From NCBI GenBank assembly GCA_948441945.1, contig CAOJQV010000001.1:46977-110976 (forward strand): DNA of 64,000 bases, written 5' to 3'. Source of the DNA: an uncultured Clostridium sp. Lineage in GTDB: Bacteria; Bacillota; Clostridia; TANB77; CAG-508. Made by a program: the position numbers and the translations under genes. The notes under the pieces were generated by a model. That model was not told the DNA's origin. It did not search any database and saw nothing but the letters and a program-made list of their open reading frames with translations. Positions 60,709 through 61,127 of this stretch are shown piece by piece (position 1 is the first letter of the stretch; every line of letters starts with the position of its first letter).

Positions 60709-61127
60709 TTTCTTCATCTTTCCCTCTCAATTGGGATGGAGGATTATCCTTTTTGGAATATGTATTAATTGATTGGAGTTCAAAATAGAAATGTTTAGAT
60801 AAGAAAATAAGTAATGTTCACGGGAAAAAGTTATATTATATTCTTTTTCATTTAACAACTCGGCTTAATACATAACTTAGAGATTCTAAATCAAATTAAT
60901 CAGCGCCCTCATGTAATGAGATCCCCTAATTAATTTGATTAAGAATCTCTACAGTTACTCCATGTCACATTCGTTGTTATATTCAAAAGAAATATAATAT
61001 AGCTTTTTAGCCTGAGTGAAAGCTCCTTATTTTCTTATCTTAACAATTCTTTTTGAACGCAATGAACGAAATACATATTCCAAAAAGGATAATCCTTCAT
61101 CCCAATCGAGAGGGAAAGATGAGAAAA
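60709..61127. repeat. ~420-bp near-perfect long palindrome (nested inverted repeats around centre ~60915)
   Basis: Outer arms 60709-60768 and 61069-61127 are ~93% complementary. Inner pairs: 60797-60813/61027-61044, 60835-60855/60985-61008, 60888-60912/60933-60958. Central loop ccCTCATgtaATGAGat is itself palindromic. Confidence 0.8.

Follow-up and report, generated by a model that had tools for sequence, protein, structure and literature searches.

Genes and signals at the spoVS-dut locus

In this study, a window of 64,000 nucleotides (the whole stretch of DNA that was analysed) was searched for repeats, and a long imperfect inverted repeat was identified at ~60700-61135, with its centre near 60914. 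It lies in the 548-nt spacer (60633-61180) between spoVS and dut, two genes of the one-strand order rny - ymdB - spoVS - dut - carD - Rrf2-family regulator - sufC - sufB (59397-63754). The Bacillus-like rny-ymdB-spoVS block is kept here in a lineage of uncultured Clostridia with small genomes and a GC content of ~28%.

The original prediction had described the whole intergenic region as a single hairpin. This description was too wide, as the spacer also holds the intrinsic terminator of spoVS and the promoter of dut, one on each side of the palindrome (Table 1). The terminator scan of the spacer gave one site against 0.1 expected, and an analogous terminator occupies the same position in relatives. 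The dut promoter scores 10 of 12 matches plus the TG extension, and the motif TTGACA...TATGNAAAAAT upstream of dut is conserved in ~20 relatives.

Table 1 Features of the spoVS-dut region (window coordinates; a dot marks features without an assigned strand)
Feature	Position	Strand	Basis or remarks
dut, dUTPase	60171..60632	-	153 aa, PF00692
dut promoter TTGACA-17-(TG)AAAAAT; outside and downstream of the element	60659..60687	-	promoter scan
Putative TSD, left copy GAAATTTT	60692..60699	.	7/8 identical to right copy
Element: 430-bp non-coding, whole-length imperfect palindrome, probably of foldback type	60700..61129	-	arm pairs, folding, nhmmer; bounds from flanking 8-mers
Outer arm (3' arm in family orientation)	60709..60785	.	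I1; first 58 nt 93% paired with partner arm
Apex mini-hairpin CTCAT-gta-ATGAG = CTCATgtaATGAG	60908..60920	.	
Core block GTTCATTGCGTTCAAAAAGAA, conserved and asymmetric, 5' arm; 21-mer that retrieved the family	61047..61067	-	
Outer arm (5' arm in family orientation)	61051..61127	.	I1 partner
Putative TSD, right copy GAAATTTA	61130..61137	.	7/8 identical to left copy
spoVS intrinsic terminator (10-bp stem, then a T run); upstream of the element and not part of it	61152..61174	-	terminator scan
spoVS	61181..61444	-	87 aa, PF04232

Structure of the palindrome

The repeat search resolved four nested arm pairs (I1-I4) of 77, 39, 31 and 26 nt, with complementarity of 81-92%, which, together with the palindromic apex, agrees with the architecture first proposed. 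The description of the palindrome as near-perfect holds for the outer arms, which are complementary at 54 of the outer 58 nt (93%) and contain a 51-mer that occurs a second time on the opposite strand with 2 mismatches. It does not hold for the whole length, since the inner arms are paired at ~80% and the unit shows 79% identity to its own reverse complement (self-BLAST; 431 columns with 21 gap openings). Arms that are 79% complementary are also a poor fit to the concern that a palindrome of this size would be rare and unstable in a bacterial chromosome. As RNA, either strand is predicted to fold into a single rod of ~-200 kcal/mol (-196 kcal/mol, z -23, for the + strand and -203 kcal/mol, z -25, for the - strand, with dinucleotide shuffles at ~-80). 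The expected absence of coding capacity was confirmed: only short, unconserved ORFs (36-43 aa) overlap the unit, those of the two arms differ by frameshifts, and indels among family members (see below) have lengths that are not multiples of three.

An nhmmer model of the family recognized the window copy at 61109-60710 on the - strand (E 5e-62), so that its polarity is that of spoVS and dut, and a two-sequence nhmmer model extended to 61140-60686. The core block GTTCATTGCGTTCAAAAAGAA faces ACTCCAATCAA on the opposite arm (within 60768-60800), a block that is equally conserved and non-complementary to it. The window holds one copy, as neither self-BLAST nor the family-model search found a second one within the 64 kb; a weak similarity at 18928-18971 was rejected as a chance match within a coding region.

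A dispersed family of homologous palindromes

A 21-mer, GTTCATTNCGTTNAAAAAGAA, which is conserved between the window copy and the copy of locus L012 (a related species with a hairpin in the same spacer), was scanned against metagenome contigs and matched at least 120 stretches. True homologues were recognized by nhmmer in 88 of the 120 stretches among the matches listed, amounting to ~93 copies; retrieval with a core 21-mer biases this picture towards conservation of the core. Among the matches listed, the homologous loci have a mean GC content of ~28%, as does the window, virtually none of them lies near spoVS or dut, and their flanks are mostly unrelated. Boundaries set by self-reverse-complement BLAST defined 36 full-length internal copies among these matches, which are whole-length imperfect palindromes of 410-553 bp and all of which (36/36) are intergenic, with tandem, convergent or divergent neighbours. 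Two copies occur within 6-10 kb at no fewer than five loci among the matches listed. Copies are found in both orientations, and the polarity of the element is well defined, since the family model scores ~300 bits on one strand and ~90 on the other. The proposal of a MITE-like element, for which multiple copies had been named as the telling check, is therefore borne out at the level of the family, with at least 88 homologous loci in unrelated intergenic contexts.

Literature searches found no published description of this repeat family. It is a previously uncatalogued family of intergenic repeats in low-GC uncultured gut Clostridia and enlarges the repeat inventory of a little-known group of small-genome gut bacteria (relatives of 'Clostridium sp. 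CAG:389/CAG:575'). BLAST searches of phage and plasmid collections with three family members gave no match, and viral contigs scanned with the core 21-mer and the GTTACARTTCACAGYC terminus gave single chance matches only. An exact 28-mer from the outer arm of the window copy had 0 matches in 185,579 species genomes, either because a representative of the species is absent or because the arms are species-specific.

Evidence for more than one copy in the window's own genome comes from a single contig, L215 (ENA ERZ14864009 NODE_8655), which belongs to the same species or a very close relative. Its region 2751-3302 (cf. window 60633-61180) carries spoVS and a 5' arm of the window type, followed from the apex on by a diverged 3' arm and then by topA in place of dut. 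This junction points to a second copy upstream of topA, joined to the first by an assembly chimera across the two copies or by real recombination between them. In contigs L099/L205, from another species, a copy adjoins a flank that is 74% identical to the topA-upstream stretch of L215.

The presence of the palindrome in the genome is not in question. Exact-protein look-ups for Dut and SpoVS led to ENA metagenome contigs from ten independent assemblies that agree in every base of the 548-nt spacer (100% identity), so the palindrome is neither an assembly artefact nor an inverted duplication specific to one assembly. De Bruijn assemblers can create palindromes or split them, and the ends of several contigs do fall within the element, which is what an artefact or a local, lineage-specific inverted duplication without relatives elsewhere might look like. 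Apart from the ten assemblies, however, homologues exist at 88 other loci among the matches listed, a second species has one in the same spacer, and 79% arm complementarity combined with conserved asymmetries is not expected from an artefactual fold-back. This reading, raised as a caution in the original prediction, is already refuted and retains practically no probability.

Independent insertions between spoVS and dut

To describe the orthologous site, 80 loci with close Dut relatives were taken from species-representative genomes. The organisms belong to the uncultured gut Clostridia; among them are 'Clostridium sp. CAG:389' and 'CAG:575', and one of the genomes is a closed MAG of 1.7 Mb. 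In ~18 related species with conserved synteny, the spoVS-dut spacer is usually 110-255 nt long, compared with 548 nt in the window, and the element is absent. The empty spacer consists of the terminator, a short gap, TTGACA...TATGNAAAAAT, a ribosome-binding site (RBS) and the start codon. The hairpin of the window is therefore inserted DNA that the corresponding spacers of related species lack, which contradicts the idea of a conserved, single-copy cis-acting site of replication or recombination.

Among the syntenic relatives, L012 alone shows a homologous hairpin, of ~470 nt, in the corresponding position of the spacer. The L012 copy shows 85-88% identity to copies elsewhere and ~55-72% to the window copy. 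By nucleotide identity of the flanks, the loci nearest to the window are L031, L032, L015 and L024, and those nearest to L012 are L015, L014 and L018; the spacer is empty in L032, L015, L024, L014 and L018, while the L031 contig starts 70 nt upstream of dut. Because both the window and L012 have closer relatives with empty sites, a single ancestral insertion common to the two was ruled out; they are separate events, each of which hit the ~40-bp gap that divides the terminator from the promoter. In L192 and L096, too, the copies do not share one site. Presence/absence polymorphism at the orthologous site is seen between species (filled in the window species and L012, empty in ~18), and no empty allele was found among the contigs of the window species.

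The window copy has landed in the sole dispensable part of the spacer, between the terminator of spoVS and the -35 box of dut, and probably has no effect on either gene; the finding has no bearing on the function of spoVS or dut. The terminator-promoter gap seems to be a recurrent landing site. In other species, the spoVS-dut spacer contains different small inserts (L082:2841-3001, L053:2771-3001 and L084:2854-2989), and further inserts are present in L089 (spacer of 402 nt) and L083 (317 nt). One such insert is a ~45-nt palindrome, GTCCAATTGAG...CTCAATTGGAC, located directly upstream of the dut -35 box.

Termini and target-site duplications

The main subfamilies have defined ends, GTTAC...GTAAC, and near-identical copies in different contexts (L094, L136, L186 and L197) lose their similarity exactly at GTTAC/GTAAC. 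Anchoring on these termini revealed target-site duplications (TSDs) such as TTGAGTAT (L012) and AATTTAAA (L133), and a repeat matching at 7 of 8 positions in L094; perfect 8/8 repeats are present in L012, L133, L159, L165 and L146, and a repeat of 7-8 bp in L175. In a symmetric scan with anchored termini, in which left and right flanks taken from different loci served as the control, a perfect 8-bp TSD was found in 5 of 37 copies among the matches listed, compared with 0.6% of the mismatched-flank controls. About two thirds of the copies among the matches listed have no TSD, and many of these share a single flank with another contig, in two cases with a TSD-bearing one (L186 with L094, and L124 with L175). 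The lack of TSDs in most copies may thus reflect chimeric or recombinant flanks together with decay.

The GAAATTT flanks noticed earlier are present at 60692-60698 and 61130-61136 and, taken as 8-mers that are 7/8 identical, fit the 8-bp TSD of the family. One terminus of the window copy appears to be shortened by a few bases. At L132, L133/L177, L114 and L099 the palindrome runs 20-45 nt past the GTTAC/GTAAC termini, as though insertion had taken place in the loop of an older hairpin (for instance a terminator or a different palindromic repeat).

Arm pairing, covariation and conserved asymmetry

RNAalifold, applied to 16 representatives, yielded 124 pairs in 12 helices. Paired cells made up 91.4%, versus 75.6% in shuffles and 42-54% with slid partners, and double changes were recorded at 78 of the 124 pairs (312 cells), versus 49 pairs (105 cells) in shuffles. 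Covariation extends over all 12 helices, with observed values beyond every shuffle and slid control, and one-sided changes are rare. The outer arms, whose complementarity has a family median of 0.86, are nearly unrelated between subfamilies (median identity of 0.47, with 0.40 for shuffled sequences). In the eukaryotic Foldback-type transposons, too, the two arms of one copy may be more like each other than like the arms of other copies. From copy to copy, the inner core is conserved together with its mismatched loops, in which facing conserved blocks are non-complementary (GTTCATTRCGTT versus ACTCCAATCAA, and CTCTCACTCAGG versus GTGAGCATTCCTCA).

Bacteria are known to correct quasi-palindromes by template switching, a mutational process through which double changes could arise without selection on a folded molecule. 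That arm-to-arm correction does happen is seen in L143:3901-4350, where the 3' inner arm matches the complement of the 5' arm exactly and the conserved asymmetric loops have been erased. Covariation is common to structured RNAs and DNA palindromes, and so does not discriminate between them. That ~200 bp of pairing persist beside conserved mismatched loops is the one point that deserves further attention; the conserved asymmetric core with its covarying arms might serve as a test case for the maintenance of long palindromes in bacterial chromosomes.

The apex is variable. In the main family it has an optional GC-rich insert, GTCGAGCGAAGCGAGGAC (L012:2600-2640, the L094 apex, and columns 274-300 of alignment A2). 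The insert holds the GCGAAGC mini-hairpin, which is very stable and has tandem G·A on its flanks, and some subfamilies are without it. In an apex variant, GTCGAACGAAGTGAGGAC, the closing pair is kept by a double change from G-C to A-T.

Nature and origin of the element

The sequence at 60700-61129 is most probably one copy of a non-autonomous, foldback-type MITE, whose halves are mutual inverted copies; we put the probability of this interpretation at about three in four. The features of MITEs are present, namely small size, lack of coding capacity, TIRs, dispersed copies and presence/absence polymorphism. In kind, this is ordinary selfish DNA, of which the window copy is an unusually large and well-paired example. 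The founder may have arisen by inverted duplication of one transposon end. The 8-bp duplications of AT-rich targets would point to staggered double-strand cleavage by a DDE-type transposase, and the family would accordingly be moved in trans by such an enzyme, encoded elsewhere and making 8-bp staggered cuts. The arms could stay complementary because one enzyme recognizes both ends, because one arm is corrected against the other by template switching or gene conversion, or for both reasons, and the conserved asymmetric blocks might be distinct left and right subterminal sites selected for mobility.

Some observations speak against a MITE. Most copies lack a clean TSD, and a transposase partner was not found in the flanks: when ORFs of at least 100 aa from the 88 loci were clustered, the recurring ones were syntenic housekeeping genes only, and terminus-like motifs away from the elements were unpaired, with no paired ends around a coding region in the family loci and viral contigs. 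Moreover, the outer arms vary and the inner core is conserved, contrary to the usual pattern of MITEs, and double substitutions along 12 helices exceed what transposase binding at the ends alone would need.

These observations have to be weighed against readings in which the fold itself matters. The hairpin, as ssDNA or RNA, could be the functional unit, with asymmetric internal loops as protein-recognition sites, either used by a structure-specific enzyme through a hairpin intermediate, on the model of integron attC sites and IS200/IS605 ends, or being a mobile ncRNA gene. The double changes at 78 of 124 pairs in 12 helices, the unpaired blocks conserved across subfamilies with differing stems, the outer stems that are well paired within each copy and nearly unrelated between subfamilies, and the GNA/GNRA-type apex mini-hairpins with their compensatory G-C to A-T change would all be explained. 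However, the 8-bp target duplications suggest that both DNA strands are cut at staggered positions, and template-switch correction can give double changes anyway. ssDNA transposons and co-transcribed RNAs are usually orientation-biased; here, the polarity of copies relative to the prevailing gene (or replication) strand is balanced (16 same and 19 opposite among the matches listed) and is random relative to the adjacent gene. The arm mismatches comprise 198 G·T and 194 A·C (and 1161 of the transversion type), so wobble pairing favours neither strand, and one-sided wobble changes are rare. Promoters inside the element do not exceed the shuffle expectation, the window copy is placed between a terminator and a promoter, and a search of Rfam 15 with E up to 1 gave nothing for L094 and, for the window copy, only sub-threshold matches to miRNA precursors. 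The balanced polarity, the equal mismatch counts and the absence of promoters and Rfam matches speak against both a strand-specific RNA and ssDNA transposition with a lagging-strand bias. The long-hairpin structured ncRNA put forward in the original prediction is not supported, and a functional hairpin in general is unlikely. Somewhat more speculative still is an undescribed structure-dependent mobile element, in which an ssDNA or RNA rod of ~450 nt with specific asymmetric loops would be needed for recognition and propagation; if true, it would cover the free covariation of the stems, the conserved mismatched loops and the extra-stable apex mini-hairpins together, and the mobilising enzyme would be other than a classical IS transposase.

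Service to the host is even less probable. A cis element acting as a bidirectional terminator or insulator, an mRNA-stabilising 3' hairpin or an RNase III site could have been recruited at many intergenic sites, by analogy with domesticated REP/BIME or Correia elements. Where the 3' end of a gene faces a copy, the gap is -24 to +40 nt and often ≤6 nt among the matches listed, with short gaps on both sides of the convergent pairs L140 and L156, and an element so placed would form part of the transcript and could bring about termination or processing of the mRNA. Yet spoVS has its own upstream terminator and dut its own downstream promoter, most related species lack the element at this site, other copies lie between divergent promoters (L094, L114, L133, L152, L197 and L205), and presence is patchy, with independent gains. 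We therefore retain the interpretation as a non-autonomous foldback-type MITE.

Comparison with known repeats

The closest known elements are bacterial MITEs able to fold along their entire length, i.e. Correia (Neisseria), ERIC/IRU (enterobacteria), RUP (Streptococcus pneumoniae) and the MaeMITEs (Microcystis) (PMC3184786). Like these, the present family is non-coding, intergenic and multi-copy, occurs in either orientation, has TIRs and a single stem-loop and, in a subset of copies, TSDs, and would depend on a transposase acting in trans. It differs in that its members are 410-553 bp long, its TSD, where present, is 8 bp rather than TA, and its termini vary while the core is conserved. Its size is at the upper end of the bacterial MITEs in PMC3184786 (Correia 104-157 bp, ERIC ~127, RUP 107 and MaeMITE 150-435), which places it among the longest fully hairpin-forming bacterial MITE-like elements.

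With the eukaryotic Foldback transposons (FB of Drosophila and Galileo; PMC3573991), the family shares very long inverted arms that make up most of the element and differ greatly in structure among copies and subfamilies, Galileo in particular having long and dynamic TIRs (PMC3573991). Unlike the present elements, in which the arms are unique and no coding copy was found, FB and Galileo are eukaryotic, of kilobase scale and internally repetitive, some of them with a P-like transposase. As to the enzyme, PMC6807381 describes 8-bp TSDs for clostridial IS6/IS26-related 'long transposase' insertion sequences (ISCbo1, ISCpe7, ISTps1, ISDsp3 and others). Such elements are a candidate source of the transposase, likened here by host (Clostridia) and TSD length only.

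The family also resembles the REP/REPIN/BIME repeats (mobilised by RAYT, IS200/IS605-like), which are intergenic hairpins often found after stop codons or between convergent genes, have conserved asymmetries, and whose mobilising gene is absent or single-copy. REP units are, however, short GC-rich palindromes of ~20-40 nt with a RAYT gene in the genome, and form doublets (REPINs) of ~100 nt that are likewise GC-rich and without TSDs, whereas the present family is 4-5 times longer, AT-rich and in a subset of copies flanked by 8-bp TSDs. Identity with REPINs was rejected on length, composition and TSD. An inverton was rejected as well, since invertons consist of short inverted repeats around a unique invertible segment with an invertase nearby, while the present element is all inverted repeat down to a 3-nt loop and none of its neighbours (spoVS, dut, ymdB, rny and carD) encodes a recombinase.

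Contig breaks at family loci

Contigs often begin or end inside the element (L005, L007-L010, L217-L220 and ~40 of L092-L211), and pairs of contigs frequently have one flank in common at ~100% identity and the other flank different. Single shared flanks of this kind would result from repeats that occur several times per genome and break assemblies, or from recombination between copies. Together with the contig ends inside the element, they mark the family as a systematic cause of broken and wrongly joined contigs in MAGs of these organisms, and account for the frequency of such faults at element sites in these metagenomes. A 51-nt deletion in one inner arm was seen in a strain of the same species (L008:1-368, ~window 60783-60833); the coverage of L008 is 1.6x, and the deletion is thus possibly an assembly error. 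The copies may be of use as markers for strain typing and for the detection of chimeric MAG contigs.
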